Program-made: the position numbers and the translations under genes
NCBI GenBank assembly: GCA_041640655.1
Contig: JBEPZV010000001.1
Location: forward strand, 154,845-218,844
Reading direction: 5' to 3'
From: a bacterium
GTDB taxonomy: Bacteria; Acidobacteriota; Blastocatellia; HR10
Length of the DNA stretch: 64,000 bases
In this document: positions 2,736 through 63,821 of the stretch, piece by piece
Layout of the letters: each line of letters begins with the position of its first letter
Position numbering within the stretch: position 1 is the first letter of the stretch
Notes under the pieces: generated by a model
What the model was told of the DNA's origin: nothing
Database searches by the model: none
Seen by the model: the letters and a program-made list of their open reading frames with translations, nothing else

Positions 2736-2738
2736 CCT

Positions 2739-36555: not shown

Positions 36556-36568
36556 CGTCACCCCCTCC

Positions 36569-40266: not shown

Positions 40267-40291
40267 AAGGATTGTGCGATAGGGGTACGGT

Positions 40292-42240: not shown

Positions 42241-42252
42241 AAGGAGGTTCAG

Positions 42253-43560
42253 ATGAAGAGCGAGAAAGTTTCAAAAATCAAAACGTGGATGGAAGGGAGG
42301 AGCAAAACCCGGACGATGGTCATTCTTTGGGTGGTATTTCTCCTGATCGTGATCGTTGCCAGAGTGTGGTGGAGCTCACATCAGTCGGACATAAACGACG
42401 AAGCGAGCGGTCGTGAGGAAACCTTGGAAGCGGCTGCTCCAAATGTGGTGACGCTCGACGCTGCCGCTCAGCGCAACATTGGTCTGAGGGTGGAAGCCGC
42501 GCAGATCAGGACCATCGTGCAAACGATTCAAACGACCGGTGTCGTCGGCCCGAACGAGACGCGGGTGGCGCATATTCGTCCGCTGGCGCGGGGTCGGATC
42601 GAGAAGGTCTACGTGCGGCTGGGCGACCGCGTGCGCGCCGGGCAGCCGCTGGTCGCCTATGACAATATCGAACTCGGCGAATTGATCGGGGAGTATCTGA
42701 GTGCGGTGGCCGCGCTGGAGAAGGCGAATGCGGAGGCTGAAGTGGCGAAACGTTCACTCGAGAGGGCGCAAAATCTGGTCGAACTCGGGGCCATCGCGAG
42801 AGCCGAATATGAGAGGCGAAATGCGGAGTACAAAAACGCGCTGGCTGCAATCAACAGCCAGAAGGCCGAGATCGCCAAGATCGAGGAGAAACTGCATCGC
42901 TTTGGGCTCACTGATGCAGATATCGCGCAAGTTACCAACCTGCGCCACACGCCATTTCACCGGGAAGCCTCCCACAGCGTCCTGCGCGCTCCCTTCGATG
43001 GCGTCGTGATCAAGTCCGATGTGGCCGAAGGCGAGGTGGTGGAAACGGACCGCGAACTCTTCACGATCGCTGATCTCTCAACTGTCTGGGTGCAGGCGGA
43101 TGTCTATGAAAAGGACATCGCCTCGATCCGCGAAGGTCAGGAGGTGAAGGTTCTTGTGGATGCTTATCCAGGCGAAACGTTCGTCGGGAAGATCACCTAC
43201 GTGAGCGATTTTCTTGATCCGAAGACGCGCACGGCCAAAGTCCGCTGTGAAGTGCCCAACCCCGATGGTCGGCTGAAACTGGAGATGTTTGCCACGATTC
43301 AAATTCCTACGCCGATAGGCCGAGAAGCGGTGATGATTCCCACGGCGGCAGTTCAGCAGATTGATGACAAGCCAGTTGTGTTTGTGAAAACCGGCGACAC
43401 ACAGTTTCAAAAACGCGATGTTCAACTTGGGAATCAAAGTGATGGTTGGGTTGAGGTCAAGAGCGGGTTGAAAGCGGGCGAGGTCGTGGTGACGCAAGGA
43501 AGCTTTTACTTGAAATCCATGCTACTGCGAGAGCAGATCGGTGGGGAGGAGGGGCACTGA
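42253..43560 (+). CDS. efflux RND periplasmic adaptor (CzcB/CusB, HlyD family)
   Basis: N-terminal TM, coiled-coil hairpin, beta-barrel and MP domains; AAGGAGG ribosome-binding site. Confidence 0.85.
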   Translation: MKSEKVSKIKTWMEGRSKTRTMVILWVVFLLIVIVARVWWSSHQSDINDEASGREETLEAAAPNVVTLDAAAQRNIGLRVEAAQIRTIVQTIQTTGVVGPNETRVAHIRPLARGRIEKVYVRLGDRVRAGQPLVAYDNIELGELIGEYLSAVAALEKANAEAEVAKRSLERAQNLVELGAIARAEYERRNAEYKNALAAINSQKAEIAKIEEKLHRFGLTDADIAQVTNLRHTPFHREASHSVLRAPFDGVVIKSDVAEGEVVETDRELFTIADLSTVWVQADVYEKDIASIREGQEVKVLVDAYPGETFVGKITYVSDFLDPKTRTAKVRCEVPNPDGRLKLEMFATIQIPTPIGREAVMIPTAAVQQIDDKPVVFVKTGDTQFQKRDVQLGNQSDGWVEVKSGLKAGEVVVTQGSFYLKSMLLREQIGGEEGH

Positions 43561-43562
43561 CC

Positions 43563-46500: not shown

Positions 46501-46643
46501 CAACGAGCGCCGGGGCCGAAGTGCAACGACCGCTGGCGACGGTGGTCATCGGCGGACTCATCACCTCGACCTTGCTCACCTTGCTCGTCTTGCCAGCGAT
46601 CTATCGCTGGTTTGAGAAAGAGCGGCCTGAGGTGGAGATTTGA
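43563..46643 (+). CDS. heavy-metal efflux RND transporter (CzcA/CusA family)
   Basis: 1026 aa, 12-TM HME-RND architecture with two large periplasmic loops. Confidence 0.9.
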   Translation: MHRIIELSLKYRFLVIVLTLLMIGVGIYNLRRLPIDAVPDITPNQVLILTRAPGLGPVEVERFITFPVETAMSGLPGVTEIRSISRFGLSVVYVFFEESMDIYFARRLVMERLPQAREMIPPGFGSPEMGPISTGLGEIYQFEVRGEGYSLMELRSILEWDIAFKLRSVPGVVEVNTYGGELKTYEVQLDANKLVGYNISLEQVMEALERNNFSTGGAYIEHNQEQQVIRGEGLVENLQDIENIVVAATPEGVPIYIKNIGKVAFAPRVRQGAVTRDGRGEVVTGVVMMLTGENSRVVVQRVKERLEEIKKSLPPGVVLDGYYDRTDLVRKTINTVTKNLTEGALLVIAVLLLLLGNLRGGLIVASAIPLSMLVAFTGMMYAKLSGNLMSLGAIDFGLIVDGSVVMIENIVRKLAERNKENPGDPMAAILEAGREVARPVFFAVGIIIIVYLPILTLQGVEGKMFRPMALTVIFALCAALVLSLTLMPVLASIVFRRGVEEHETWVIRKVKQAYLPILRKAVDHPRLTVSIAATIFLLSVVVALTMGAEFIPRLDEGVIALQAWRLPSVALSEAVKNTTLIEKTLKQFPEVTSVISRTGQAEIPTDPMGVEVSDIYVLLKPRDEWTTAKTREELIKKIDRALKENVPGTIFSYSQPIELRMQELIAGVRSDIAIKLYGDDLEVLKQKADEIVRVISRIPGAADTKAEQVAGLPFLRIRINREAIARYGINAAQILDVVEAMGGKIVGQVLEGQRRFFLQVRFQESDRQDVEQIKNIKVADPQGRLIPISQLADVWVEQGPAQISRENLHRRITVETNVRGRDIASFVAEARRAIEQKVKLPPGYWLEWGGQFENLQRASARLALVVPLALFLIFVLLYTTFNSARLAALIFINVPMAATGGVFALFVRGMPFSISAGVGFIALFGVAVLNGVVLVSYIKKMREEGAPPIEAAMKAAEIRLRPVLMTALVASLGFVPMALSTSAGAEVQRPLATVVIGGLITSTLLTLLVLPAIYRWFEKERPEVEI

Positions 46644-46680
46644 TGCTATGAAGTGAAACCATAAAAGGAGAGATTCGATT

Positions 46681-47685
46681 ATGAGACCAGATAGAAGAAC
46701 CTTTCTAAAATGGAGTATTTCGGGGACCACGTTTTTCGCCGCAGCCTCTTTGCTTGATTTACGTGGAGACCGAGCGGCGGCTGTCGTAGGAACCCTGAGC
46801 GAAGCTCATGCAAGCGCCAGGCGCCCCTTGTTTGTTGCCCCGCAACGCGAATTCGTTCTTCGTGTGCGTGAGGGATTCCGCCGGATGGTGGATGGCCGCA
46901 GCCTCTACGCGTGGGGATATACAGATGAGAGTGGTGTGATTCAAGGCGTCGGACCGCCGCTCACGGTTCGTGAGGGTGAGCGAATCACAGTGACGCTGGT
47001 GAATGAGGGCCGCGATGGGCATAGCTTCCATATCAAGGACATTCTCTCAGATCAAACGGTGGTTCCGCCGGGAGGGCAACATACGTATGAGTTCATGGCT
47101 CCGCTGGCGGGGACTTACCTCTACTACGATTCGGCCAATGATCCGCTTGGTCGGGCGCTGGGGCTGTGCGGCGCATTGGTGGCGTTGCCTGCTGATGGCC
47201 GTCAGACAGCGTGGACTGGCGGCCCGGCGTTCGATCAGCAATTCCTCTGGGTGCTCAGCGAGCTGGATGAGCGATGGAACGTGGCCCGGCAAAACGCCCA
47301 ACCGGTCGACCTGCGGGACTATCGGCCCAACTATTTCTTCATCAATGGCCGGAGTTTCCCCGAGACCATGTCTGATCCAAACGCGATGATGGCAGGTCGC
47401 GTCGGGCAGACCGTTTTGATCCGCACCGTCAACGGCGGACTCATCTCGCACGCGATGCACTTTCACGGGTATCACTTCAGAATCATCGCCCGAAATGGGC
47501 AGCCGCAAGCTGCGTTCATCGAGAAAGATACTTTCGTCGTCTATCCCGGCGAAACGATGGACGTGCTCGTCACACTCGACCAGCCGGGCCGATACCCGGT
47601 GCATGATCACTCGCTGATGGCGGTGACCGCCAATGGCGTTTATCCCAACGGCATGATGGCCGAATTTGATGTGAGGGAGGCGTAA
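46681..47685 (+). CDS. multicopper-oxidase-family cupredoxin protein, TAT signal
   Basis: RRTFLKW TAT motif; HxH copper motifs (HSFH, HFHGYH, HDH). Confidence 0.7.
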   Translation: MRPDRRTFLKWSISGTTFFAAASLLDLRGDRAAAVVGTLSEAHASARRPLFVAPQREFVLRVREGFRRMVDGRSLYAWGYTDESGVIQGVGPPLTVREGERITVTLVNEGRDGHSFHIKDILSDQTVVPPGGQHTYEFMAPLAGTYLYYDSANDPLGRALGLCGALVALPADGRQTAWTGGPAFDQQFLWVLSELDERWNVARQNAQPVDLRDYRPNYFFINGRSFPETMSDPNAMMAGRVGQTVLIRTVNGGLISHAMHFHGYHFRIIARNGQPQAAFIEKDTFVVYPGETMDVLVTLDQPGRYPVHDHSLMAVTANGVYPNGMMAEFDVREA

Positions 47686-47687
47686 CG

Positions 47688-48569
47688 ATGGCAATTCGAG
47701 ATTTCACACTCTTTGCTGGTTTCGGTAGCACGACGATGCCCGACGGAAACACGTTTCCGGTTTGGGGCTTCTCCACCACGCCTGGACGGGTAGTCGTTCC
47801 TGCTCCCACGCTCACGGTGAACGAAGGCGACTGGGTCAGGCTCACGCTGCGCAACATGACGATGATGGAACACACCATTCATCCCCACGGCCTCGATGTT
47901 GACACACTCAACGACGGAGTTCCCCACACTTCCTTCACCGTGCCGCCCATGGGCAGTTACACCTATCAGTTCACGGCCAGGCACGCCGGAACGTATGCTT
48001 ATCATTGTCACGTCAACACCGTGCTTCATCAGCAGATGGGGATGTATGGCGCGTTCATTGTGATGCCTGCTGATGGAAGTCAGCGGGCATGGACGGGCGG
48101 GCCTGCGTTTGACAAGCAATACGTTTGGGTGCTGAGCGAATTCGATAGCGCGTGGCATCGAGCGGCGGGCATGATGGGTGGTCCTCCCGTGGGCAACGTC
48201 AATTTCGCTTCCTACAATCCCGACTACTTTCTTATAAACGGCAAGGCTGATCCGGAGACGCTCAGCGACGCGTCGACGGCCATCGTCGCGGATCGAGGCC
48301 AACGGGTGCTCGTCCGGTTGATCAACATGGGGTACTTAAACCAACGAGTCTCGCTTGGCGCATTGCTGTTTCGAGTGATCGCCTCCGATGGCCGACCTCT
48401 GCCGCGAAGTTATGAAGCGAGCCGTATCGTTCTCGCTCCGGGTGAGCGATATGATGTTCTTGTGGCGGTGCCTCAAGAGCCAGGCGTGCATACAGCGCAG
48501 GTGGATTATCTGTCGCTGTACGACGGCTCAGTCTTAGGAGTAGCCAGAACCCAGATTCGGGTCGCGTGA
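47688..48569 (+). CDS. multicopper-oxidase-family protein (paralog, no signal peptide)
   Basis: HPHGLDV and HCHVNTVLHQQM (type-1/trinuclear Cu ligands); shares AWTGGPAFD block with upstream paralog. Confidence 0.7.
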   Translation: MAIRDFTLFAGFGSTTMPDGNTFPVWGFSTTPGRVVVPAPTLTVNEGDWVRLTLRNMTMMEHTIHPHGLDVDTLNDGVPHTSFTVPPMGSYTYQFTARHAGTYAYHCHVNTVLHQQMGMYGAFIVMPADGSQRAWTGGPAFDKQYVWVLSEFDSAWHRAAGMMGGPPVGNVNFASYNPDYFLINGKADPETLSDASTAIVADRGQRVLVRLINMGYLNQRVSLGALLFRVIASDGRPLPRSYEASRIVLAPGERYDVLVAVPQEPGVHTAQVDYLSLYDGSVLGVARTQIRVA

Positions 48570-48595
48570 CGCGGCTCGACAGAAGAGGTGAAACC

Positions 48596-48937
48596 ATGAA
48601 AGAAATCAAAGCGATCATTCAACCGTTCATGCTCTCGAAGGTGATTAACGCCTTGAAAGAGCTGGAAGGATTGCCCGGTCTGACTGTCTCTGAGGTGAAA
48701 GGCTTTGGAAAAAGTCAGGCGGAGGATGCGGAACACAAGATCGTTGAAGACTTCGTCGGGTATGTCAAGAAAGCCAAGCTGGAGATCGTCGTCCCCGATC
48801 ATCTGGTCGGAGCGGTCGCTGAGATCATCCAGACGCACGCACACACAGGCAATCCGGGCGACGGGAAAATCTTCATCTCGACAGTGGATGATGTGATTAA
48901 GATCCGCACCGGCGAACGAGGTGAAGGAGCGATCTAG
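48596..48937 (+). CDS. P-II family signal-transduction protein (GlnB-like)
   Basis: MKEIKAIIQPF...TVSEVKGFG...IVV...TG..GDGKIFI matches the PII fold; located in the metal efflux operon. Confidence 0.7.
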   Translation: MKEIKAIIQPFMLSKVINALKELEGLPGLTVSEVKGFGKSQAEDAEHKIVEDFVGYVKKAKLEIVVPDHLVGAVAEIIQTHAHTGNPGDGKIFISTVDDVIKIRTGERGEGAI

Positions 48938-48999
48938 AACATGTGAAAGCGAGCAAGCTCTTGCGCGGCAGGTAACAGCCAACCCAAAGGAGGACAACG

Positions 49000-49386
49000 A
49001 TGAACGCATTTGAGCGAACAGTCACAACTGACAAATCGTTTGAAGAGGCCGTTGCGGCCATTGAGCAGAAGGCCGCTGAGAAGGGTTTCCGGGTGCTGCA
49101 CACGCACGATGTGGCGGCGACGTTGGCGGAAAAGGGCTTCCCACGCGAGCCCCTGAAGATTATTGAAATCTGCAACGCCAAGTACGCGAGCCAGGTGCTC
49201 AACAGGGATGTGAAGATTTCCCTCATGCTCCCCTGCCCGATCAGTGTGTATGTCGAAGGCGGCCAGACGCACATCAGCACGCTGCTCCCGACTTCGATTG
49301 TGCAGTTCTTTCCCCACGCCGGGATTGAGGATCTCGCGTCGGAGGTGGAGAGCATTGTGCTCCGGATTATAGAAGAGGCGCGTTGA
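49000..49386 (+). CDS. DUF302 domain protein
   Basis: 128 aa; family commonly found beside metal-resistance genes. Confidence 0.55.
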   Translation: MNAFERTVTTDKSFEEAVAAIEQKAAEKGFRVLHTHDVAATLAEKGFPREPLKIIEICNAKYASQVLNRDVKISLMLPCPISVYVEGGQTHISTLLPTSIVQFFPHAGIEDLASEVESIVLRIIEEAR

Positions 49387-49391
49387 GGAAA

Positions 49392-51305
49392 ATGAAAGAG
49401 GATAAGAAAATGAAAGAGGACAAGAAGGAAGAAATCTTTGAGGGGAAATGGTACGCTCACCCCCCAATGCGAAACGCATTGATAGCCGCCGTGCTCGCAG
49501 GCACCGCATTTGGGTTGGCTCATCTTGGGAGTATTCCTTCGCTGGTCGAGACCGCTCTCTATCTGGTGGCCATCCCATTGGGTGGCTACCACTGGGCTCG
49601 CGAAGGGATTGAAGAGTTGATCGAAGAGAACGAGATCGGCATAGAAATCCTGATGCTGGCGGCTACGCTTGGTTCAGCGGTGTTGGGCATGTTGGATGAA
49701 GCCGCCTTCCTGGTCGTCCTCTACGGGGCGGCTGAGGGATTGGAGGAGTACACCTACGCCAGAACCAGGGCTTCCATCAGGAAACTTCTCGACCTCGCTC
49801 CCAAAGAGGCGAGAGTCATCAGGAATGGGGAAGAAATAATCATACCCGCTGAAGAGATAGCTGTCGGAGATGTCTTCGTCGTCCGGCCCGGCGAGTCCAT
49901 CCCAACAGATGGCATTATTGTCAAAGGTCGGTCCAGCATCAATGAGGCTCCTGTGACCGGCGAATCCATCCCGGTTGAAAAGAAAGAGGGAATGAAGGTC
50001 TTTGCCGCTACTATCAATCAAGAAGGAGCGTTGGAGATCAGGGCCACAGCGACGTTTGAAGATAATACCCTCGCCAAAATGGTCCATCTGGTCGAGGAAG
50101 CACAGGAACAAAAGAGCAAGACTCAGCTCTTCATTGAAACGTTTGGGCGGAGATACTCTCCGTTAGTCCTCTTGAGTTCCTTGCTTCTCATCGTCATCCC
50201 TCCTCTGATCGGAGCGTCTTTTTCGGAATGGGCAACAAGGGCGGTGGTCCTTTTAGTCGCCGCTGCCCCTTGTGCTTTGGTGATGTCTACGCCCGTCGCC
50301 ATTGCCGCTGGGATTGGTCGGGCGGGCCGATCTGGCGTGCTGATTAAGGGAGGAATTCATCTCGAAAATCTGGGCAAGATCAAGGCGGTGGCGTTCGATA
50401 AGACAGGAACGCTCACCAGAGGCAAACCCATTGTAACCGACGTGGTGCCCCTGAATGGAGACGAATCTCAACTGCTGGCGTTCGCTTACAGTGTGGAGAG
50501 ATTTTCTGAGCATCCCCTGGCCCAGGCCATTGTGGAAAAGGCGAAAGAATCTCATGTCGAGGCTCTGGAAGCCACCGACTTTAGCGCTCTTGTTGGTTCG
50601 GGCGCGAAGGCCAAGATTGCCGGCAGAACGATTTACGTTGGCAAACCAGGGCTATTTGAAGAGCTGGGTCTGAAGGTCCGGGGCATTCCAGACGCTGAGA
50701 GGCTCAGGGACGAAGGGAAGACGGTGATTCTCGTGGGCACAGAAGAAAGTATTGCAGGGTTCATTGCCATCCGAGATGAGGTGAGACCCCAAGCCAAAGA
50801 GGTCGTAGATCAGCTTCACCGGATGGGTGTGAGAGTCGTCATGCTGACTGGCGACAATGAGGTGACGGCCAAAGCGATTGCTAAGGAACTGGGTATAGAT
50901 GAAGTGAAGGCCGATCTCAAGCCAGAAGATAAGATCAAAGCGGTGGAAGAATTGGAAAAGAAGTATGGGTCTGTGGCGATGGTTGGTGATGGTATCAACG
51001 ATGCGCCGGCATTGGCCAGAGCGACCGTTGGCATAGCTATGGGCGTAGCCGGGACCGATGCCGCCATCGAAGCCGCCGATATTGCTCTTATGGCCGATGA
51101 TCTCACCAAGGTGGTTTATGCGATCAATCTTGGCAAGAGAGCCAGACGGATCAGCTTGCAGAACATTGTCTTTTCGCTCCTCATTCTGGCGGTTCTGATA
51201 CCCTCAGCTCTCATTGGCATCATGACAGTGGCCATTGCGGTTGTGGCGCATGAGGGCTCAGAGCTTTTGGCGGTGGCCAATGGTTTGCGGGTAGCAAGGG
51301 GGTAG
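49392..51305 (+). CDS. heavy-metal translocating P1B-type ATPase (P1B-4-like; APC transmembrane motif, HEG C-terminal motif)
   Basis: [19 protein letters not shown]6 APC, C-terminal HEGSELL, no N-terminal HMA domain. An 18-nt tandem duplication encodes MKEDKK x2 at the N-terminus. Confidence 0.85.
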   Translation: MKEDKKMKEDKKEEIFEGKWYAHPPMRNALIAAVLAGTAFGLAHLGSIPSLVETALYLVAIPLGGYHWAREGIEELIEENEIGIEILMLAATLGSAVLGMLDEAAFLVVLYGAAEGLEEYTYARTRASIRKLLDLAPKEARVIRNGEEIIIPAEEIAVGDVFVVRPGESIPTDGIIVKGRSSINEAPVTGESIPVEKKEGMKVFAATINQEGALEIRATATFEDNTLAKMVHLVEEAQEQKSKTQLFIETFGRRYSPLVLLSSLLLIVIPPLIGASFSEWATRAVVLLVAAAPCALVMSTPVAIAAGIGRAGRSGVLIKGGIHLENLGKIKAVAFDKTGTLTRGKPIVTDVVPLNGDESQLLAFAYSVERFSEHPLAQAIVEKAKESHVEALEATDFSALVGSGAKAKIAGRTIYVGKPGLFEELGLKVRGIPDAERLRDEGKTVILVGTEESIAGFIAIRDEVRPQAKEVVDQLHRMGVRVVMLTGDNEVTAKAIAKELGIDEVKADLKPEDKIKAVEELEKKYGSVAMVGDGINDAPALARATVGIAMGVAGTDAAIEAADIALMADDLTKVVYAINLGKRARRISLQNIVFSLLILAVLIPSALIGIMTVAIAVVAHEGSELLAVANGLRVARG

Positions 51306-51430
51306 AGGCGAACCATGAGTTCAAAGTGCGCATTGACCGCTTCCTGACAGGCAAAGGAACACGCATGCAGGGTTGTTGGACATGGCGGAGATCAAGTCGC
51401 TTTTGTCGCTGGACACTTTCACTTGCCGTC

Positions 51431-51460
51431 TCTAGAATAGTTGAGCAATTGTTCAATTAT
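51431..51460 (+). promoter_or_regulatory. imperfect inverted repeat, putative ArsR/SmtB operator
   Basis: ATAGTTGAGCAATTG / CAATTGTTCAATTAT centred on CAATTG, about 20 nt upstream of the CadC-like gene start. Confidence 0.35.
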
Positions 51461-51475
51461 GATTATGAGGTGAAT

Positions 51476-51874
51476 ATGCCGAAAGCGACTGTCACTAAGA
51501 AGCGAACCAGCGCCCGGCTCCCAGTGCGCGACACGTGCGAGCAAGTTTGCTACGATGCGCCGCTTGTGCGCACGCTCAAGCGAGAGATGCTCGCCGACGA
51601 TACTGTGATGGAACTGGTGGCGACCTTCGAGGTTTTGGCCGACCCAACACGCCTCCGAATTATCTACGCGCTCGGCCGGGGCGAATTGTGCGTGTGCGAC
51701 CTGGCGCATGTGCTGGGGATGAGCTTGTCTGCCACGTCGCACCAACTGCGGCGACTGCGCGATCTTCGGCTGGTCAAGTACCGATACGAGGGCCGGATGG
51801 CCTTCTATTCGCTCGATGACGAGTTCATCAAGAAGATGGTGGAAGATGCGGTGCAGCACGTAGAGAGTGATTGA
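51476..51874 (+). CDS. ArsR/SmtB family metal-sensing repressor (CadC-like)
   Basis: LADPTRLRIIYAL helix-turn-helix and CVCDL metal site; GAGGTG ribosome-binding site. Confidence 0.8.
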   Translation: MPKATVTKKRTSARLPVRDTCEQVCYDAPLVRTLKREMLADDTVMELVATFEVLADPTRLRIIYALGRGELCVCDLAHVLGMSLSATSHQLRRLRDLRLVKYRYEGRMAFYSLDDEFIKKMVEDAVQHVESD

Positions 51875-51875
51875 G

Positions 51876-52994
51876 ATGACGAATCAAGAGCCGATTGAGA
51901 AAATCCGATCCGAACTGCAAGAGGGCATGAGCCTGGCCAAATGCCGGAAGTGTGGATGCATGAAGGAGACCCTGGAAAATCTCGGGACTTCGCTTTCTTC
52001 AATCGAAACTCCGGCTTCTTCAGATTTGCGTCAACAGATCGGAGCCTGGCTAAAGCAAATGGAACCGATCAAGTATGCGTGCCTGGGGTGCGAGTATTGC
52101 TTCCCGGCGGTGGCGATGAATGTTTTTCACCAAGCCTTTCCTGAAGCCGCACAGGGTCCATCGCTAGGGTGCGCCTTTGAAGTGAGAGTGCGAACCTGGC
52201 CCCCTGTGCCAGGGGAATATTTCGCTTTCTGTGATGGCCCAGCTTGTCCAGTCGCCGTCTCCACTCTGGCCAGTGTGGAACTGGCCGAAACGCTGGCCGG
52301 CATAAGACCAAAAGAGCTTTGCATTGTCGGCAAGACAGAGACAGAAAACATCGGCATTGACAAGGTCATCAAGAACACGATCACCAATCCCACGATTCGC
52401 TTTCTTCTGTTGGTGGGGGAAGACCCTCAAGGCCATCAGCCCGGCAGGACATTTCTTGCTCTGTCGAAAAATGGTGTTGATGAGAACGGGCGGGTGATAG
52501 GCTCTCCTGGCAAGCGCCCTATTTTAAGAAACGTGACCCCTGAAGAGGTGGAAACCTTTCGGAAACAGGTGCGGGTTGTGGACCTAATTGGATGTGAAGA
52601 TGTGAAGACCATCATTGAGAAACTCAAAGAACTCTCACAGAGTCTCAGCCTGTCCTGCAACTGTGCGGAGTCCACTAAGGAAACCATGCCTGTTCAGAAT
52701 TCCACCGTGCCAGTCATTCAGGCAGAAGAGCCCACGAAAGTTGAGATGGATAAGGCCGGCTATTTCGTGATCATTCCACAGCCAGAGAAGGGGATCATCG
52801 CGGTAGAACATTACTCTTACGACAACCGGCTTTTAAGAGTCATTGAGGGCAAGAATGCCAGAAGCATCTCCTGGACAATCATTGAAAACGGTTGGGTGAC
52901 GCAGCTCTCTCACGCCGCTTATCTCGGAAGGGAATTGGCTAAGGCAGAACTTTCAATGAGACTGAGATTCAAATACATTCAGGACGGAGCATAA
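51876..52994 (+). CDS. MtrA-like (tetrahydromethanopterin S-methyltransferase subunit A family) corrinoid-type protein with N-terminal Cys-rich domain and DUF4346-like C-terminus
   Basis: N-terminal CRKCGC...CLGCEYC cluster; central region resembles bacterial MtrA homologs; family assignment by eye only. Confidence 0.45.
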   Translation: MTNQEPIEKIRSELQEGMSLAKCRKCGCMKETLENLGTSLSSIETPASSDLRQQIGAWLKQMEPIKYACLGCEYCFPAVAMNVFHQAFPEAAQGPSLGCAFEVRVRTWPPVPGEYFAFCDGPACPVAVSTLASVELAETLAGIRPKELCIVGKTETENIGIDKVIKNTITNPTIRFLLLVGEDPQGHQPGRTFLALSKNGVDENGRVIGSPGKRPILRNVTPEEVETFRKQVRVVDLIGCEDVKTIIEKLKELSQSLSLSCNCAESTKETMPVQNSTVPVIQAEEPTKVEMDKAGYFVIIPQPEKGIIAVEHYSYDNRLLRVIEGKNARSISWTIIENGWVTQLSHAAYLGRELAKAELSMRLRFKYIQDGA

Positions 52995-52999
52995 AAACG

Positions 53000-53686
53000 A
53001 TGGAAAGGGGAACTTCAACCATAGTGAAACAAGTTTTGGACGCGCAGCGCCAACATTGGGAAAATACATTTTCAAAGAAGCCTGATATGTTTGGGAGCGA
53101 GCCCAGTGATTGCGCTCGAAAAGCAGCAGAGCTATTCAAAAAAGAAGGTCAAACCAAGATTCTCGAACTCGGAGGCGGACAGGGGCGAGATACCATCTTC
53201 TTTGCTCAAAGTGGTTTTCACGTTCACGTACTTGATTATTCTGGGAACGCAGTTGAAGCCATCACCCAAAAAGCCCGAGCATTGGGCTTGTCTCAGTCCG
53301 TCAGAGCGATATGTCACGATGTTAGAGAACCCCTCCCCTTCGATAATGAATCTTTCGATGGTTGCTATTCGCATATGTTGTATTGTATGGCGCTCACAAC
53401 TTCGGAGCTCGAATTTCTTTCAGACGAAGTCAGGCGGGTATTAAAACCAGGTGGACTCAACATTTACACAGTTAGGCATACAGGTGACCCCCATTATGGA
53501 ACAGGCATTCATCGAGGGGAGGGTATGTATGAGGTTGACGGATTTATTGTGCATTTTTTTAGTAAAGAAAAAGTACAACATTTAGCCAAAGGATATGAAA
53601 TCGTTGGCGTTGATGAATTTGAAGAAGGTGGACTTCCCAGAAAACTATTCCGAGTAACACTGAGAAAGAAAGGAGGCGAATCATGA
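53000..53686 (+). CDS. class I SAM-dependent methyltransferase (TehB/thiopurine-MT-like)
   Basis: ILELGGGQGRD motif I, acidic motif II VLDYS, 228 aa, several Cys. Confidence 0.75.
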   Translation: MERGTSTIVKQVLDAQRQHWENTFSKKPDMFGSEPSDCARKAAELFKKEGQTKILELGGGQGRDTIFFAQSGFHVHVLDYSGNAVEAITQKARALGLSQSVRAICHDVREPLPFDNESFDGCYSHMLYCMALTTSELEFLSDEVRRVLKPGGLNIYTVRHTGDPHYGTGIHRGEGMYEVDGFIVHFFSKEKVQHLAKGYEIVGVDEFEEGGLPRKLFRVTLRKKGGES

Positions 53687-54189
53687 CGAAGACAAAACTT
53701 GCAGTGCTCACTACCGCCTGCTTAATCTTAGGTGGCATTTGGCTGTCCAGTTATGCTCAACAGAGCGAAGTGCACAAAAAAGCAACGGAAGGACAGTCTC
53801 AAATGCAAATGGGACCGGAGATGATGCAGCAAATGATGAAGGACATGGGCAACAATCCTATGATGGCCCAATGCCAGCACATGATGCGCACCGTCATCTA
53901 TCCCGATAGTGCATCGAGCATCCTTGCCTTGAAGGAACAACTTGACCTTTCCGAAAAGCAGACGAAAGAGCTCATAGCCATTCAGGAAAAGGCCAATGCC
54001 GAGGCAAAGAGAGTCCTTACCGAGGAGCAGGGTAAGAAGTTTGAAGCGCTGACCAAAGACTGGAAGCCACAATCCATGATGCAATGCATGCAAACCATGA
54101 TGTCTCAGATGCAGAAGATGATGGGAGGCCAGATGCCTGCCTGTCCTATGATGCAAATGATGCAAGGAAAGGAGCGACGAACAAAGTAA
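53683..54189 (+). CDS. periplasmic Met-rich LTXXQ-motif protein (Spy/CpxP/ZraP-like)
   Basis: Signal peptide; MxxM-rich N- and C-terminal tracts (MQMGPEMMQQMMKDM, MMQCMQTMMSQMQKMM); central LSEKQ...LTEEQ helices. Confidence 0.6.
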   Translation: MTKTKLAVLTTACLILGGIWLSSYAQQSEVHKKATEGQSQMQMGPEMMQQMMKDMGNNPMMAQCQHMMRTVIYPDSASSILALKEQLDLSEKQTKELIAIQEKANAEAKRVLTEEQGKKFEALTKDWKPQSMMQCMQTMMSQMQKMMGGQMPACPMMQMMQGKERRTK

Positions 54190-54302
54190 CGGGACAAAAG
54201 TTCGGGGCGCTTTTTGCTGGTGCCTTGACAGCTATTCAAGAGCGTTCCTTTGGTTTAAAAGTGTTCCCGAACTTTTGTCCACCTACTAAGGAGCATTGAA
54301 TC

Positions 54303-54728
54303 ATGAAGCGAGTCATCCTCGTGCTGATCATTGTGGCTGTAGCCGCCGTCGTGACCGTGAAGCTGGTAAGCAGAAAGCAAAAGCCTCAACCGCCATCGGC
54401 AGTGGTGACCGCACCATCATCGGCCAGCACCCAAGGCAAGCCAATTCTTTATCTGTTTCACGATCCGTCTGATCAGGATGCCGGTTGTCGGCGCATTTAC
54501 GCCTATCTGGATCAGGCCGAGAGAGAACTGGCTGGGCAAGTGGAAGTGCGGCGGCCGGATGTTGAGCGTGAGAAGAATCTTGTCGAGCAGTTTCAGGTGC
54601 GGGTGCTGCCGACGGTCTTGCTCGTATCGCCAACCGGTGCTGTTGAGCAACGCTTTGAAGGTGAGGACAGTTCAACCGCCGAGCACATCGAGCAGGCGCT
54701 CGAACGATTGAAAGGGATGCCACAGTGA
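54303..54728 (+). CDS. membrane-anchored thioredoxin-fold protein
   Basis: N-terminal TM followed by a thioredoxin-like fold; paired with the CcdA gene by ATGA overlap. Confidence 0.45.
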   Translation: MKRVILVLIIVAVAAVVTVKLVSRKQKPQPPSAVVTAPSSASTQGKPILYLFHDPSDQDAGCRRIYAYLDQAERELAGQVEVRRPDVEREKNLVEQFQVRVLPTVLLVSPTGAVEQRFEGEDSSTAEHIEQALERLKGMPQ

Positions 54729-55384
54729 ATCCACCGAACATTGAAGAGATTTCTTTGACAGCTTTTGTGCTGACCTTTATGGGCGGGATCGTGACCGGCT
54801 TCAATCCCTGCTGCTATACGATGGTCCCAGCACTGGTTGGCTACCTGAGCGGGTACTGTGAGCCATCGGTGAAGCGATGCGCGTGGCTGTCGGGCTGGTT
54901 TGCCATCGGGCTTGCTACGGCCACTGCGATGTTGGGATTAATCGCTGTGCTTGCTGGTGGAATATTCGGCGGCGTGCATCCAGCGGTGCGTTATCTTCTC
55001 GCCGTGATACCGATTGTAATGGGTTTGCACCTGTTGGGGATTATCAATATCAAAGTGCCAGCGGTTCGCCATTGGCGGCCTATCCGCTCTGGTACACTCG
55101 GCGCGTATCTCACCGGCTTGCTATTTTCTCTGGCGATCCTTCCTTGTGCTACTCCTATTTTGGCTTCAATTCTCGCGTATACTGCCAGTCATGGCAGTGT
55201 GCTTTATGGCTCAGCATTGCTCTTCATCTATGGCACAGGAATCGGTGTGCCAATTGTACTTGTCGGTACAAGCCTCGGCATTCTTTCATCACTGCGACTA
55301 CTGGCTTGCTGGTGGTCGGTGGTTCACCGCCTCAGCGGCGTAATCCTCATTGGGCTGGGCTTCTACTTGCTCTGGCAAGCATAA
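54725..55384 (+). CDS. ccdA: cytochrome c biogenesis protein CcdA / DsbD transmembrane-domain family
   Basis: Six TMs, conserved Cys pair (FNPCC...C); 219 aa. Confidence 0.8.
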   Translation: MNPPNIEEISLTAFVLTFMGGIVTGFNPCCYTMVPALVGYLSGYCEPSVKRCAWLSGWFAIGLATATAMLGLIAVLAGGIFGGVHPAVRYLLAVIPIVMGLHLLGIINIKVPAVRHWRPIRSGTLGAYLTGLLFSLAILPCATPILASILAYTASHGSVLYGSALLFIYGTGIGVPIVLVGTSLGILSSLRLLACWWSVVHRLSGVILIGLGFYLLWQA

Positions 55385-55611
55385 TTCGCTATGGACCACA
55401 AAGAAAAAAGCTGGTCGTTCCAGGCAATAGCCACACTCACCACAACGCCAGCGGGCAGACGGTCAAAGACCTTGTCTGGGGGAACCCTTTGAAGAAATGG
55501 CTCGACATGATGCGCCAATTCTGGGCGAGATTTGTCCTGACGGCTCCGATTCTCCACATCCACTGGCCCGATGAGTTGACCATCTCCCAAGTATCGCTCT
55601 AACGTCGTATC

Positions 55612-56688
55612 GTGGGGCAGCTCGCCGCCTATACGCTCTTTCTGTTTAATGGTCGTCTGGCCTTCCAACTGGCGGACGCTGTGGGAACCGGATTTACCAA
55701 CTACATCTCGAACGCCTCGGTGAATGATGGGCAGTGGCATCATGTTGCGGCGACGGTTCAGCGAACGAGCGGGCCCCCCATGCTCACGCTCTACGTGGAT
55801 GGCATGTCAGTTCTCACCAATCCGAATCCGAGAATGGGCAATCTGACGAACACGAATCCATTATGGATCGGACGGCGGCATCCTGTTCCTGGCGCTACGA
55901 CGGACCGGTTCTTCGTCGGAGACATTGACGAAGTGGAACTCTTCAACCGGGCGCTGACTCAGCAAGAGATTCAAGCCATCGTCCAGGCGGGCGCGGCGGG
56001 CAAATGCAAGGGGTGCATCGAAGGCATGAAGTGGAACGATGCCAACGGCAACGGTGTGAAAGATCCCAATGAGTCAGGGCTGTCGGGCTGGACGATTCAG
56101 CTCAGCGGTCCTTCTGGTGTGATTGCCACGACCACCGGCACCGGCGGCACCTATCGCTTCTGCGGATTGCCGCCGGGCACCTACACGGTGGCAGAAGTGT
56201 TAGTGTTGCAGCCTTTCTGGGTGCGCACGTTCCCGCCGCCACCGGGCACGCACACGGTCACGCTCGGCGTCAATCAGACGGTGTCCAACATCAACTTCGG
56301 CAATCGGCGGGTGATCGTTCTGCCTGATTTCGTGGTGAAGAATCTGCGCGTGCTGCCGCCCGTGATTCCGCGGGGAGGGACGGCCATTGTTTCGTTTGAC
56401 ATCGTCAATCAAGGTGAAGGGGAAGCCGGTCCGGCGACCCATCAGGTGCGGCTCTTCATCCGGCGTCCCGGTCTTCCCGACCTTGATGTGTTGCTCGCCA
56501 CGGTGGCGACGGGAACGCTGGCTGCCGGCGGCTCGCAATCGTTCACCGTGGCGATCCGGTTGCCGCAAGAGGTTCCGACCGGCACGGCCCTGATTCGCGT
56601 CCTGGCCGATGCAGGGAGAACGGTCAACGAGTCGAACGAGGAGAACAACGTGGCCGAAGTTCAGATCACCATCACCGGAGGACCGTAG
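55612..56688 (+). CDS. LamG-like / Cna-B / CARDB domain surface protein, N-terminally truncated fragment
   Basis: Begins inside a concanavalin-like domain (no signal peptide or start context); an out-of-frame LamG-like stretch lies upstream at 55400-55600; sits at the GC transition. Confidence 0.45.
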   Translation: MGQLAAYTLFLFNGRLAFQLADAVGTGFTNYISNASVNDGQWHHVAATVQRTSGPPMLTLYVDGMSVLTNPNPRMGNLTNTNPLWIGRRHPVPGATTDRFFVGDIDEVELFNRALTQQEIQAIVQAGAAGKCKGCIEGMKWNDANGNGVKDPNESGLSGWTIQLSGPSGVIATTTGTGGTYRFCGLPPGTYTVAEVLVLQPFWVRTFPPPPGTHTVTLGVNQTVSNINFGNRRVIVLPDFVVKNLRVLPPVIPRGGTAIVSFDIVNQGEGEAGPATHQVRLFIRRPGLPDLDVLLATVATGTLAAGGSQSFTVAIRLPQEVPTGTALIRVLADAGRTVNESNEENNVAEVQITITGGP

Positions 56689-57313: not shown

Positions 57314-58156
57314 TCAAAAGTGATAACTCAAGCCGAAGACGCCGTGATGGGAGCGAAGGAGCGCTTCGGCGTGACCAGCGAAGATTGCGCCGCGCTGCCG
57401 CGTGCGCGTGAATTTGTATTCGCTGAGCACGTAGAGGCCGCGCCAGAGGTGAACCTCCCCGCCGACAGCCCACTGCCACGCGAGGCGTCCCCACTGGTAC
57501 TGCTCCTGCTCATGGCCCTCGATGGTGCTCTCCGTATGCGGGATTGTGGGGCCGAGGCCAAATCGCGTGGTCACCATCAGGGGGCTTCGACGGGCATCGG
57601 CGCGTTGACCGAGCGGCGCGCGGGCGACGACGTTCAGGAGCAGGAGGTTCGCTCCATGAGAGATCGCGTAGCGCTGGACGATCTCCGAGAGCGCGAGTTC
57701 TCGCTCCAGTCGCGCGCCGCGATGCAACCCGGCCACGCGCACGCGCTGTTGCGGATCGGCGTAGACTTTCATGTGGATGAACTCGGCTTCAAAGCCGAAG
57801 AACCGGAGGCGTCCGGGAAAGTAGCCTCCCCGAACGCCATAATAAAGCGGCGGATCGAAGGAACGGCCTTCGAAGCGAACCCCCTCGAAATCGAGCTCGG
57901 TCTTCAGCGTCGGTTGCCGGATGCGCAATCTGGACGGGGTCGTGTGCGCGCCTCCGAGATAAAGGGCGATGACCCAGCGGCTGCGCTCCGGGCGAGGGGA
58001 TTGGCTGCCGTCGCGGGCTGGAAACGTCGGTCCGAGTGGGTTCGAGCCCGTTGCTTCATGGGGGGACTGGGTTTGGTGCGTTGCTTGAGCGAATGCGGTG
58101 GGGAAGGTCGGCGCGAGCGCGAGCAAGGCGGTGAGCGCGAGCCGTTCGATCTTCAT
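57314..58156 (-). CDS. outer-membrane beta-barrel protein (signal peptide)
   Basis: ATG 58156 after GGAGGAAG; signal MKIERLALTALLALAPTFPTAFAQA; alternating amphipathic strands; C-terminal aromatic residue (YHF). Confidence 0.5.
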   Translation of the reverse strand: MKIERLALTALLALAPTFPTAFAQATHQTQSPHEATGSNPLGPTFPARDGSQSPRPERSRWVIALYLGGAHTTPSRLRIRQPTLKTELDFEGVRFEGRSFDPPLYYGVRGGYFPGRLRFFGFEAEFIHMKVYADPQQRVRVAGLHRGARLERELALSEIVQRYAISHGANLLLLNVVARAPLGQRADARRSPLMVTTRFGLGPTIPHTESTIEGHEQEQYQWGRLAWQWAVGGEVHLWRGLYVLSEYKFTRTRQRGAIFAGHAEALLRSHHGVFGLSYHF

Positions 58157-58805
58157 GGCGCTTCCTCCGTTCGCCGAGCTCACCCACATTGTGCCACGAG
58201 TAGCGGTGTTTGTGAACTGAGCAGGCGAACCGCTGTCGGTGTGCGCCGGATGCGAATCGGAGACGACGCGAACGGACCGAAGGAGGGACACCCTGTTGTG
58301 AGAACGGCGCAGCCAGAATCCGGGAGCGTCAATGGCGGATACTTCGAGCTTGCCGAACTTCGAGATCCTCCGCGAGCGGCTGGCTCGGGAACTGATCCTC
58401 TGCCTCAGTCTGGACCATTTGACGCTCTGGACTGCCTGAGAGGGGGATCGCGAGCGGTGGAGGGGCCAGCTCGTGGCTGAACTGCGCACCGATGACTTGT
58501 CGTGATGGATGCGGAGCTGGCACGTGTGAAGAAGAGAACCGCAAGCGACATCGGGTGATCAATGGAGGGGGAGCGGAGCCTGGGGAGAGGTGCTCGGTCT
58601 CAGGAAGCCCATTGAGTCCGATAATTCGACGAGGACCGAGCGTCTGGCGAGGGCTCGGTCGTCGTTGTTTTGTTTGTTTGCGGTGTCCGCTTCCACGCCA
58701 TTTCATGTGAAGGAGGCGTGGCTTATCCCGGGCGTGTTTCGGCGCTTGAGGCGTGTGGCCTCGTCGTGTATAGTGTTGGTGATTGGGCGGAGGTCATGTG
58801 GCACT

Positions 58806-60310: not shown

Positions 60311-62557
60311 ATGAAACGCTCCTTCACTCGTGCCATCTTGGTGTTGGTGGTGATCCTGGTTTCCGTTCAGGAGGGAGTGGCCGGGCAAAGCCATCCGGCG
60401 GATTCCATGCCTTCCCCGGTGCGCATCGCCACCGCGCGGCGGCTCACGGCGGAGATCACGCTGGATGGCCGGCTCGATGAACCGATCTGGAACGAGATCG
60501 AGCCGATCACCGATTTCACCCAGACGGAACCCGACGAAGGCCAACCGGCAACCGAACGAACCGAAGTTCGGATCTTTTACGATCGCAAGAAGCTCTATTT
60601 CGGCTTTCGCTGCTTCGACTCGGAGCCGAGTCGAATCGTGGCTCGCCTCGATGCTCATGATGCCCGCACCTTCTCCGACAGTGTGGAGATTTTGCTCGAC
60701 ACGTTTCATGATCGTCGCACGGGCTATTTTTTCAGCGTCAATGCTCGCGGCGTTCAATTCGACGCCATTGTGTCGGAGACAACTGGAGGCGGCTCCGGCT
60801 TTGGCCTGTACGATGGGACGTGGGATGGACTGTGGGAGAGCGCGGCGACGATTGACGAATTCGGCTGGACGGCGGAAATCGCCATCCCGTTCAAGATCCT
60901 CCGATTTCCTCGCACATCGCCGCAGACCTGGGGGCTCAATCTCGGCCGGGTAATTGTGAGAAAGAACGAAACCGTGCGCTGGTATCCGGTGGCTCGGTTC
61001 GATGCGGTGATGAAGCCGTCGAAGTCCGGCGTCCTTCGAGGACTCGACGACATTGAGCCCGGACGCGATCTGGAGATCATTCCGTTCACCCTCCAGCCGG
61101 GGCGCTTTCGCACGACGGTTCCCACCCTTTCGGGCTATCATCCCACCGCCGGCGTGGACGTGCGCTATGGTCTGACGGCCAACCTGAAGGCGAACCTGAC
61201 CGTCAATCCCGATTTCGCCCAGACCGAAGCGGACGAGATCAATATCACGCTCTCCCGGTTCGAGCTGTTTTTTCCGGAAAAGCGCGCGTTTTTCGTCGAA
61301 GGGGCGAATTTTTTCCGCACGCCGCTTCGCCTCTTCTTCACCCGACGGGTGGGCCTGCGGGTGCCCGACGGATCGGAGCAGCGGATCGCCGCCGGAGCCA
61401 AGATCACCGGCAAGATCGGGCGATACAGTCTGGGTCTGCTGGAAGCCCGCACCCGCGATCAATTTTTCCTCGATCCCAAATCGGGACAACGGCGCGTGAG
61501 TCCGGGAGCCAATTTCTTCGTCCTGCGCCTGCAGCGCGACATCTTCGAGAAATCCGCGCTCGGATTCATCACGGTGAATCGGGATCAGCCGGGGAGCGAT
61601 TTTTCTCACTCGGTGCGCGCGCATGGGATTGATCTGTCGCTCGCCCGAGGACGACATGTCACCTTTTCCTCGCAGGTGGCCGTGAGTCAAAATCCCGGCG
61701 TGCGGGCGAGTCTGTGGCAGCAGGCCGGCGCCACGGCCGAGTTCCGCTATGATTCCGATCAATTCGAATACCAAGTTAAGGCGAAATATCTTGGCCGCGA
61801 CTTCGATGTCGGCGGCATCGGCTTTGAGCCCGAGACGGGGCGGGTGAGCGGGCAGATGAGTTTCACCTACAAGCCGTTTCTCAATCGCTTCGGCATCCGG
61901 CAGATTTTCCTGGAGCCCAACTACGATCACGTCGCTTTGGTGACGGGCGAGCTCGATGACTCGGGCGCCGATCTGCGCCTGCGCGTGCAATTGAAGAATT
62001 TCTGGTCGGTGCGGGCCGTCTATTCCTACGACCGGGTTCGATTCAACGAGTTCGTGAACCAAGCGGCGCTCGATCGGATGAGAGTCTACATCATGCCGCG
62101 CGTCATTCTGGGGGTGACGACCAATGAGAATCGGTCGGTTTCCCTGAGCCTTCAAGTCGTGCGGCGAAAGTTCGTGGACTTTCGTGACAACTACTACGGT
62201 CGTCTCTGGTTTTACGAAGTGGGGTTGAATGCCCGGCTGGCCGGCCGCACGAAGCTCGAACTGCGGGGCCTGCTCTTCCGCGAGTCTTTCATGAATGGGA
62301 AGCTGGAGGAGAATCGAAGTTTGATCCTCGCCCGCCTCGGCTATCAGTTCACGCCCAAGCTGCGCGCTCGATGGCTCGCCCAGTTCAACAACGACAATCG
62401 CCGCAATCAATTCAACCTCAACTTTCTGCTCTCTTACGATTTCACCGCCCGCAGCGCCCTGGCCATCGGCTACAACACGGAGACGATCTCGCCCGAGTCG
62501 CCTTTTCGCCTCGGACGGGAATTCTTCGTGAAATTCTCCTATGTGTTGGCCTTTTGA
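60311..62557 (+). CDS. DUF5916-like outer-membrane-associated protein with N-terminal CBM9-like domain
   Basis: Signal peptide; 748 aa; beta-rich; resembles DUF5916-family proteins of Acidobacteria/Bacteroidetes. Confidence 0.5.
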   Translation: MKRSFTRAILVLVVILVSVQEGVAGQSHPADSMPSPVRIATARRLTAEITLDGRLDEPIWNEIEPITDFTQTEPDEGQPATERTEVRIFYDRKKLYFGFRCFDSEPSRIVARLDAHDARTFSDSVEILLDTFHDRRTGYFFSVNARGVQFDAIVSETTGGGSGFGLYDGTWDGLWESAATIDEFGWTAEIAIPFKILRFPRTSPQTWGLNLGRVIVRKNETVRWYPVARFDAVMKPSKSGVLRGLDDIEPGRDLEIIPFTLQPGRFRTTVPTLSGYHPTAGVDVRYGLTANLKANLTVNPDFAQTEADEINITLSRFELFFPEKRAFFVEGANFFRTPLRLFFTRRVGLRVPDGSEQRIAAGAKITGKIGRYSLGLLEARTRDQFFLDPKSGQRRVSPGANFFVLRLQRDIFEKSALGFITVNRDQPGSDFSHSVRAHGIDLSLARGRHVTFSSQVAVSQNPGVRASLWQQAGATAEFRYDSDQFEYQVKAKYLGRDFDVGGIGFEPETGRVSGQMSFTYKPFLNRFGIRQIFLEPNYDHVALVTGELDDSGADLRLRVQLKNFWSVRAVYSYDRVRFNEFVNQAALDRMRVYIMPRVILGVTTNENRSVSLSLQVVRRKFVDFRDNYYGRLWFYEVGLNARLAGRTKLELRGLLFRESFMNGKLEENRSLILARLGYQFTPKLRARWLAQFNNDNRRNQFNLNFLLSYDFTARSALAIGYNTETISPESPFRLGREFFVKFSYVLAF

Positions 62558-62975
62558 GCGGGAGCCCGTCTCACGCAGCGGGCGCAACATGCTGTTGGTG
62601 GTGGGGCGGCAGGGTTCATCCGCGGGGAGGTGCTCGCGCGAGGTCCATCGAGTCCGATAAGTAATGTTACGCCTCAAATGATATCCCAAGCACCCATTCA
62701 CGCCGCGTTCGGTCTCTTCGCCCACGCCCCTCACGTCCTCATGCGGAGAACCCCTCCAAAGGTCACGCCCGCAGGCTCGCCGCTCGCATCAGGCTTGCCA
62801 CTCGCATGCGGCAATGGCCTCAAGGTCGGCCACCACATCCACAGCAGCCTACCGGAAAGCCCGCGCGCCGCGGCTTCCTCCGCGGATTACGACCCTATAA
62901 AACCGCAGGAATACAGAGTCCCGGCCCTTCCCGAATCCACGCGCACAACCCGGAACCCAGGTCATTGAGTGGCTC

Positions 62976-63557
62976 TCACTGCGCCGAGGACGACGACATT
63001 TCTCCAGGATCGGCTGTCACCATCTCCGGTTCGGGATCGACGCCGAGAGCATCTGCCACTCGGTTGATGTAGTTGAAATAGGCGATAACCTGAACCAAGT
63101 CGAGAATGTCTCGGTCGCTCAGGCCCACGCTCCGCAGCCGATCCAGATCGGAAGGCGTGACGTTCCAGGGCGTGCGCGTCACTTTCTCGGCAAATTCACA
63201 GAGCGCACGCTCGCGCTCGCTGAGCGGAGCCCGTCGGTAATCGTGCTTCACCTGGGCCACCAGATCGTTGTTGTTGGTTTCCTTACGGAGATCCTCCCCG
63301 TGCGCTTCGACTCAGTAGAAGCAGCGGTTGGCCCATGACGTGACGGTCGCCACCAGCTCCCGCTCGGCGCGCGAGAGCTTCGATTCCCCGTACATCACCG
63401 TAAGGTAGAGCTGAACGCCCGCCCGCAAGGCCGCCGGATTGAGGCTCTGTACCTTGACGATATTGAAGACCTTCCCGGCCCGTCGCCGCGCGGCTTCATA
63501 TTCTCGTGCCAGGAATCCGGTCGCTTCCTCTTCCCCGATGATCCGTATCCATGCCAT
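62976..63557 (-). CDS. AhpD/carboxymuconolactone-decarboxylase-family peroxidase-related protein; candidate selenoprotein (in-frame TGA at 63312..63314)
   Basis: ORFs 63312..63617 and 62976..63260 are in the same frame, separated only by TGA. The TGA falls at the second Cys of the family motif N-x-C-x-Y-C-x-x-x-H (here NRCFY-TGA-VEAH). GAGGAGG ribosome-binding site before the ATG at 63557. Confidence 0.5.
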
Positions 63558-63629
63558 AACTGCCTCCTCTGAGAAACACCCGCCCACCACACAAGACAAC
63601 GCCCAATGAGCGGCCATCCTCTCTGCGCC

Positions 63630-63821
63630 TCATCGGTCGCAACGCGAACCCGCCTCAAAGGACGCGAGGCCCACCACCGCGGGCTCACCCCAGTTCGACA
63701 CCATGTCGCCAGCCGCAGCGAAACGAGAGGACATACACGTCTCTGCGCCTCGCGCTCGCGCCACGGCCGGCGTGGCCGTCGCATCAATGCCGCCGCTCAG
63801 AAGAACCACGGCGTTCTTCAT
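63630..63821 (-). pseudogene. possible queC-like (PP-loop ATPase) N-terminal remnant
   Basis: MKNAVVLLSGGIDATATPAVARARGAE resembles the QueC N-terminus (MKKAVVLLSGGLDSTT...); similarity is lost after about 30 aa. Confidence 0.25.

Follow-up and report, generated by a model that had tools for sequence, protein, structure and literature searches.

A probable AhpD-like selenoprotein gene with a short candidate SECIS hairpin in an Acidobacteriota-type genome

Gene anatomy and genomic surroundings

Two minus-strand open reading frames (ORFs) lie in the same frame near the end of the window (the whole 64-kb stretch of DNA analyzed) and are parted only by a TGA; inspection of the sequence and its translation showed the coordinates given for them in the first-pass annotation to be right (Table 1). 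From an ATG (63557..63555) to the stop the frame has the TGA at codon 82 (63314..63312) as its sole interruption, and reading through it yields a product of 193 aa, in agreement with the normal length of ~193 aa proposed before, with the motif N77-R-C79-F-Y-U82-V-E-A-H86. The longer ORF start at 63617 that appears in the mechanical ORF list was dismissed; as the N-termini of all relatives fall at the MAWIRI position, 63557 was taken to be the true start.

Table 1. Positions of the features described in the text, in window coordinates unless a related locus is named.
Feature	Position	Strand	Remarks
AhpD-like/peroxidase-related CDS, predicted selenoprotein	62976..63557	minus	193 aa including putative Sec82; TIGR01926, CMD PF02627, PDB homologs
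Stop TGA of the AhpD-like CDS	62978..62976	minus	read from sequence
Shine-Dalgarno-like GGAGG	63563..63567	minus	5 nt 5' of ATG 63557; read from sequence
In-frame UGA, putative Sec codon U82	63312..63314	minus	second position of C79-x-x-U82; H86 four residues on
Spacer from UGA to hairpin base, 10 nt (GUCGAAGCGC)	63302..63311	minus	length constant in the 20 sequences with the GGA-triloop hairpin
Predicted bacterial SECIS hairpin	63285..63301	minus	bSECIS constraints, synonymous-site conservation; overlaps codons H86-G-E-D-L-R91
Hairpin regions of distant relatives	L018:1884-1943; L019:3244-3303; L022-L024:3247-3306
ArsP-type permease	31006..32052
Molybdopterin oxidoreductase and 4Fe-4S partner	33331..37516	minus
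OEP/HlyD/AcrB-type RND efflux trio	40747..46643
Two multicopper oxidase genes	46681..48569
P-type ATPase	49383..51305
ArsR regulator	51326..51874
MtrA/pterin-binding DUF4346 protein	51867..52994
SAM methyltransferase	53000..53686

The gene stands alone and is convergent with a DUF5916/CBM9 gene (60311..62557, plus strand). Neither ahpC nor genes for lipoamide dehydrogenase or sucB adjoined the AhpD-like gene, and no neighbor common to all lineages was found that could serve as a clue to a redox partner: upstream neighbors were an amino-acid permease in L003-L010, a Gate-domain transporter in L012-L015 and a queuine tRNA-ribosyltransferase (TGT) in L022-L024 (L numbers denote the related loci treated below).

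A queC-like remnant (63630..63821, minus strand) lies just upstream. Its N-terminus (MKNAVVLLSGGIDATA..., ~27 residues) is followed by a frameshift leading to ...DVYVLSFRCGWRHGVELG and then by a stop; nothing remains of the rest of the gene. We take this remnant to derive from queC (7-cyano-7-deazaguanine synthase), DVYVLSFRCGWRHGVELG resembling the SF(D)YGQRH motif of QueC; Pfam searches with the 63-aa ORF of the remnant gave nothing at E <= 1e-5. In the Planctomycetota loci L022-L024 the homologous upstream gene is 68-1250 nt off, its identity as TGT being read in L023 and extended to L022 and L024 via BLAST clustering. The presence of a queC-like remnant here and of TGT upstream in Planctomycetota may be a coincidence.

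The remaining window includes two functional regions. A long co-directional acyl-CoA/aromatic catabolic cluster on the plus strand (421..28371) holds CoA-transferases, an OYE/FadH-type Fe-S flavoenzyme, a TetR regulator, an acyl-CoA dehydrogenase with EtfAB, an SDR, a PaaK-like CoA ligase, a thiolase, an HMG-CoA-synthase-like protein and an enoyl-CoA hydratase, together with caprolactamase/acetophenone-carboxylase-like subunits (20767..25220) followed by PEP-utilising domains. A metal/metalloid resistance region occupies 31006..56688. The only other strong TGA-interrupted candidate in the window (14505..14507) was rejected as a second selenocysteine codon, since it ends a full-length thiolase as a genuine stop, with etfB following in frame. 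A minus-strand ORF of 391-414 codons (57314..58705) displayed a coding-like composition without a Pfam match; in-frame TGA codons flank it (58559..58561 and 57314..57316), short coding-like segments lie beyond them, and the ORF overlaps a plus-strand ORF, of which it may be an antisense shadow.

Genes of the selenocysteine machinery were looked for in the same material. None of selA, selB and selD was found among the ~47 window ORFs with NCBIfam or Pfam, and the search for tRNA-Sec gave no tRNA genes at all in the 64-kb window, the 24 related loci or L027/L028. The last two contain exact copies of the gene (L027, JGI 3300014652; L028, NCBI GCA_006214125.1, VAPR01001993.1) and reach ~4.5 kb past the window end; these 4.5 kb contain a multihaem cytochrome c gene and, just beyond the window end, a second MtrA/pterin-binding (DUF4346) gene, and neither sel genes nor tRNA appeared there in the gene tables or the tRNA search.

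Protein family and conservation of the in-frame TGA

For profile matching of the protein, Cys was put in at codon 82. It matched TIGR01926 'peroxidase-related enzyme' over the full profile (NCBIfam; 179.1 bits vs. a cutoff of 81.8), residues 2-178 lying on positions 1-178 of the 178 in the profile; the AhpD core domain TIGR00778 scored 39.5 bits vs. a cutoff of 27.8, and Pfam CMD (PF02627) also matched the AhpD-like read-through product. The full-length TIGR01926 match together with Pfam CMD bore out the earlier assignment to the AhpD/CMD family. Membership in NF041238 'AhpD_rel_CFYUT' was tried and rejected (74.6 bits, below the cutoff of 175, with only profile positions 151-341 matched); this family ('hypothetical protein 1', Sargasso Sea) shares the C-F-Y-U motif and an AhpD-like C-terminal domain with the gene product but has a two-domain profile of 357 positions, in contrast with the 193 aa found here.

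Five Cys homologs of solved structure (2oyo, 6k40, 2pfx, 3c1l, and 2prr) matched at E values from 1e-24 to 1e-34, with 2oyo, 6k40 and 2pfx at about 1e-33. In the three alignments with these proteins codon 82 stood opposite the second Cys of N-x-C-x-Y-C-x-x-x-H-G, which is where the first-pass annotation had placed the TGA; the alignment with Cys homologs that it had proposed thus sets the TGA against the second Cys of CxxC. Cys forms for which DNA was available (P0023, P0024, and P0030; L029-L031) have a Cys codon (TGT or TGC) at position 82; P0023, the nearest of the true Cys forms, shares only 54% identity. C79, H86 and E67, the latter twelve residues before C79, were invariant (22/22 sequences). 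The gene accordingly presents the Sec/Cys pair by which a bacterial selenoprotein gene is judged, as well as the CxxU with His at +4 that marks an AhpD-like selenoprotein.

The Cys 'peroxidase-related enzymes' (2oyo, 2pfx, 3c1l, 2prr, and DR1765, whose structure is 6k40) are homologous to the gene product over ~160-170 residues (E 1e-30 to 1e-34) and share with it both N-x-C-x-Y-C-x-x-x-H-G and a C-terminal Y/F-F-N-x-x-N-R-V, but have Cys where the gene product would have Sec, in the second position of CxxC. AhpD of Mycobacterium tuberculosis, the lipoamide-dependent reductant of AhpC, shares the CMD/AhpD core domain (the TIGR00778 match above) but is only distantly related to the gene product. 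The spacing of E67, C79, U82 and H86 is presumably that of Glu118, Cys130, Cys133 and His137 in the mycobacterial protein. The closest characterised relative is DR1765 of Deinococcus radiodurans; according to the account of Zhao et al. (2020) given in PMC8945050, its loss leads to H2O2 sensitivity and complementation needs the CxxC cysteines, and the same article puts this close relative of our gene product at 12% identity to M. tuberculosis AhpD.

The earlier statement that AhpD-like proteins are a known selenoprotein family with Sec in place of Cys is documented in the literature, with the motif CxxU (PMC1088965, PMC2398784, PMC13188914). 'AhpD-like protein' (COG2128, CxxU) entered the literature in 2005, when 27 Sargasso Sea sequences were described as a new selenoprotein family (PMC1088965), 'AhpD-like 1' was the fourth most abundant family in the GOS study of 2008 (299 sequences vs. 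902 Cys homologs; PMC2398784), and a 2026 review has the entry 'AhpD-like protein, TIGR01926, CxxU' (PMC13188914). BSepDB allows AhpD-like protein to be browsed as a family. Examples from genomes were few, with two sequences in Table 1 and Alkaliphilus metalliredigenes named in Table 3 of PMC1794560. The gene reported here is like this family in its TIGR01926 score above cutoff, its CxxU and its predicted small bSECIS with a loop G directly after the UGA. Published examples come mainly from marine metagenomes whereas this copy and its relatives come from Acidobacteriota-type MAGs; nothing essential differs.

Relatives were sampled by scanning one genome per species with six peptide patterns, which gave 24 full-length sequences of 45-95% identity. 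They belong mostly to Acidobacteriota/Terriglobia MAGs, and also to Gemmatimonadota, Phycisphaerales, Fidelibacterota and Planctomycetota, Brocadiaceae included; the closest was 'Bacterium HR10' (BEHM01), with 95% aa identity. TGA was present at the homologous codon in 24/24 of these relatives, and also in L026. This is not an ascertainment artefact, because one of the six scan patterns (WANRCFYC) would favor Cys forms. Downstream of the TGA, 97-111 codons were kept at the protein level in the 24 relatives with no other stop or frameshift, ending in a conserved C-terminus (...Y-F-N-Y-I-N-R-x-A-x-x-L-G-V-D-P-E-P-E-M), while mean pairwise nucleotide identity among the relatives' genes was 65%; the frame is therefore kept on either side of the UGA in independent genomes. 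The first-pass annotation had considered that close relatives might show a Cys codon, this strain alone being a nonsense mutant, but near and distant relatives all carried TGA.

Synteny with the closest relative was short. Window positions 62887..63576 aligned with L001:2982-3671 (Bacterium HR10) at 95.8% nucleotide identity, covering the gene and its immediate flanks, and outside this segment only short patches aligned (window 63932-63987, 63772-63839, and 62474-62544; the subject is assumed to be L001). L001 is without the DUF5916 gene downstream and has a different upstream spacing. As far as these alignments tell, the surroundings of the gene are rearranged between two otherwise close genomes.

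The hairpin downstream of the UGA

A stem-loop within about 10 nt of the UGA had been pointed out before. It exists and begins 10 nt 3' of the UGA, but had been drawn slightly wrong: it consists of ACGGGGA (63301..63295), a GGA loop (63294..63292) and UCUCCGU (63291..63285), with 7 bp, and the distance from the UGA to the apical loop is 17 nt. The published bSECIS model asks for a loop of 3-9 nt with G in its first two positions, an upper stem of 4-16 bp, 16-37 nt between UGA and loop, and an MFE <= -7.5 kcal/mol (PMC13188914). The hairpin lies within all four constraints (loop GGA, 7 bp, spacing of 17, and -7.5 kcal/mol), its energy being exactly at the threshold. Hairpins of the relatives mostly reached -10.1 to -13.5 kcal/mol, with an extra C-G pair in most of them and a further G-C pair in L007.

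This GGA-triloop hairpin, 17-21 nt long and near-invariant, was found 17 nt after the UGA in 20 sequences from Acidobacteriota and Gemmatimonadota. In these, third-position entropy in the six-codon window from codon 86 was 0.10 bit vs. a median of 1.35 bit, the lowest value of the gene, and identity across the 19-nt hairpin was 96%, as against 65% for the genes as a whole. Codon choice was nearly fixed across it in the 22 colinear sequences, L018 and L019 included (CAC in 21/22, GGG in 17/21, GAG in 20/20, GAT in 20/22, CTC in 21/21, and CGT in 21/22), whereas invariant Leu, Arg and Gly columns elsewhere in the gene take 3-6 codons in the same sequences; CGT, the Arg codon of the hairpin, makes up 5% of the Arg codons in the window's genes. 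When the same 19 codons were recoded synonymously with the codon usage of the window, 13 of 5000 versions (0.26%) gave a bSECIS hairpin of -7.5 kcal/mol or lower. Of the three Cys forms L029-L031 none had a hairpin that qualifies; the best values were -5.0 and -3.6 kcal/mol in two of them, and one had no hairpin. Taken together, these four results show that the hairpin does not simply follow from the H-G-E-D-L-R codons it overlaps but is kept by selection on the RNA. The structure that had been doubted as a SECIS for being short both fits the published bSECIS consensus and bears this mark of selection.

Compensatory changes were absent from the stem (0/8 pairs altered on both sides in 19 distinct sequences) because the stem hardly varies: 97.4% of its cells were paired in these sequences, and the variation consisted of one pair changed from G-U to A-U in three sequences and of the outermost C-G pair lost in four. 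The 66-nt surrounding fold was no more stable than its shuffles (z = 0.33), so the signal is that of a local hairpin and not of a large structure. A covariance-model match, proposed in the first-pass annotation as a check, was not obtained: no Rfam SECIS family was matched over the whole window at the gathering threshold, and at E <= 10 the region 63150..63400 gave two unrelated chance hits with no SECIS family among them. Rfam has models of bacterial SECIS elements for part of the lineages only, and the non-match was not counted against a SECIS. Support for the SECIS comes from selective conservation and consensus fit, not from covariation or a family model.

The GGA-triloop hairpin was not present in five distant relatives (L018, L019, L022, L023, and L024). 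In the first four of these, from Phycisphaerales, Fidelibacterota and Planctomycetota including one Brocadiaceae, the loop starts 24 nt after the UGA and is a hexaloop of the form CG[UG]G.. (CGUGAA, CGGGCU, CGUGCC, or CGUGAU). The conserved D-L-R codons form the 5' arm and loop in this second design, in contrast with the loop and 3' arm in the GGA-triloop design. In L024, a second Brocadiaceae relative, the best hairpin (-9.7 kcal/mol) has a loop of 9 nt and lies at a distance of 18 nt from the UGA. Three of the five distant hairpins were weak as perfect stems (-5.4, -3.5, and -0.9 kcal/mol) and by inspection become longer only with bulges. Replacement of the SECIS within one orthologous group is a tentative explanation, to which we give somewhat less than even odds, and is offered as a lead and not as a result.

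Decoding of codon 82 and its meaning

In the public records L027 and L028 the gene is split into separate calls of 81 and 94 aa, and neither the gene nor its relatives were annotated as selenoproteins in the records compared. Protein-database matches were of three kinds: C-terminal fragments of ~106-117 aa that begin just after the TGA, several of which NCBI or JGI label 'peroxidase-related enzyme'; JGI proteins given as 'full-length', with Trp at position 82; and true Cys forms. The DNA of P0001, which has W at 82, shows TGA followed by the same hairpin (L026:322-897), and for this reason the W-82 JGI proteins, called on contigs of ~1 kb, are taken to be Sec forms translated with a wrong genetic code, presumably code 4. 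Mis-annotated database entries comprised P0001-P0014, P0029, P0032, P0058, P0085, P0087 and P0091.

Three other explanations of the locus were weighed. A single third-base change turns TGC or TGT into TGA, and the split of the locus by public gene callers (81 aa and 94 aa) is what a pseudogene would offer, that is, an ordinary AhpD-like gene killed by a nonsense mutation at its Cys codon, with the downstream frame decaying. The TGA is, however, shared across phyla by relatives that are not assembly duplicates, as their 65% mean pairwise nucleotide identity indicates, the nearest true Cys form is distant (54% identity), and the TGA is followed by a hairpin whose synonymous sites are constrained; because the TGA and the 97-111 codons beyond it are conserved in 24/24 relatives, we regard this explanation as excluded for practical purposes. 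The many database fragments of ~106 aa starting just after the TGA (VEAHGEDL... or MEAHGEDL...) could instead reflect a split gene, in which the N-terminal 81 aa and a C-terminal peptide with its own initiation would be two subunits and the hairpin a coupling or attenuation element. Neither a Shine-Dalgarno sequence nor a conserved start codon follows the TGA, though; the codon after it varies (GTC, ATC, ATT, ACC, ACG, CTT, and GAA), so that most relatives are without a start codon there, and the first listed start past the TGA in the window is GTG 63260, 17 codons on. Termination at codon 82 would also drop the second redox residue and divide CxxC...H between two chains, whereas the solved homologs are single chains, and we consider two subunits highly improbable.

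A slightly larger, still very small, probability was given to insertion of a standard amino acid (Trp, Gly, or Cys) at the UGA, through a reassigned code or through SECIS-independent near-cognate read-through. The Trp in the JGI gene calls (P0001-P0014) and the failure to find Sec machinery in the 64-kb window would agree with it, but those calls were made on ~1 kb contigs whose DNA has TGA. Genome-wide reassignment of TGA was rejected, since TGA is the normal stop of 20/26 family-matched genes in the window, which fits neither code 4 nor code 25. In homologs, moreover, this site has the catalytic Cys of CxxC, and a Trp or Gly there would destroy the redox centre; the hairpin after it is conserved and fits the SECIS model.

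We therefore favor, at a probability of roughly 0.88, the reading in which the gene encodes a 193-aa AhpD-like selenoprotein with a redox role (TIGR01926, COG2128, CMD fold), whose UGA at codon 82 would be decoded as selenocysteine, and not as a stop, by means of the hairpin. The ACGGGGA-GGA-UCUCCGU hairpin, 10 nt downstream, would act as a bacterial SECIS and recruit SelB-GTP-Sec-tRNA(Sec) to the ribosome. The redox centre would then be C79-x-x-U82, with H86 at +4 and E67, U82 replacing the second Cys. Such a product would most likely be a selenol/thiol oxidoreductase in peroxide defence, serving either as a direct hydroperoxidase or as the reductant of a peroxiredoxin or an OsmC/Ohr-type partner, and might cycle through an intramolecular Se-S bond between C79 and U82. 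Sec insertion, SelB binding, substrate and reductant are the inferred parts of this reading.

The biology is not new: the gene is an ordinary, mis-annotated member of a selenoprotein family known since 2005, and AhpD-like proteins (COG2128/TIGR01926, CxxU) have ranked since that year with the most abundant of the selenoprotein families predicted in prokaryotes. The practical value of the finding lies in annotation, given gene calls that are split, truncated or translated with Trp, and the near-invariant 19-nt hairpin provides a simple search signature for this AhpD-like subfamily. For the organism, an Acidobacteriota-type bacterium nearest to 'Bacterium HR10', the gene suggests the use of selenocysteine; in the 2006 survey the Sec trait in Acidobacteria comprised three families and four selenoproteins (PMC1794560). 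If both hairpin designs work, the relatives would constitute a natural series on the turnover of SECIS inside a conserved coding sequence, and would also bear on the minimum size of a working bacterial SECIS.
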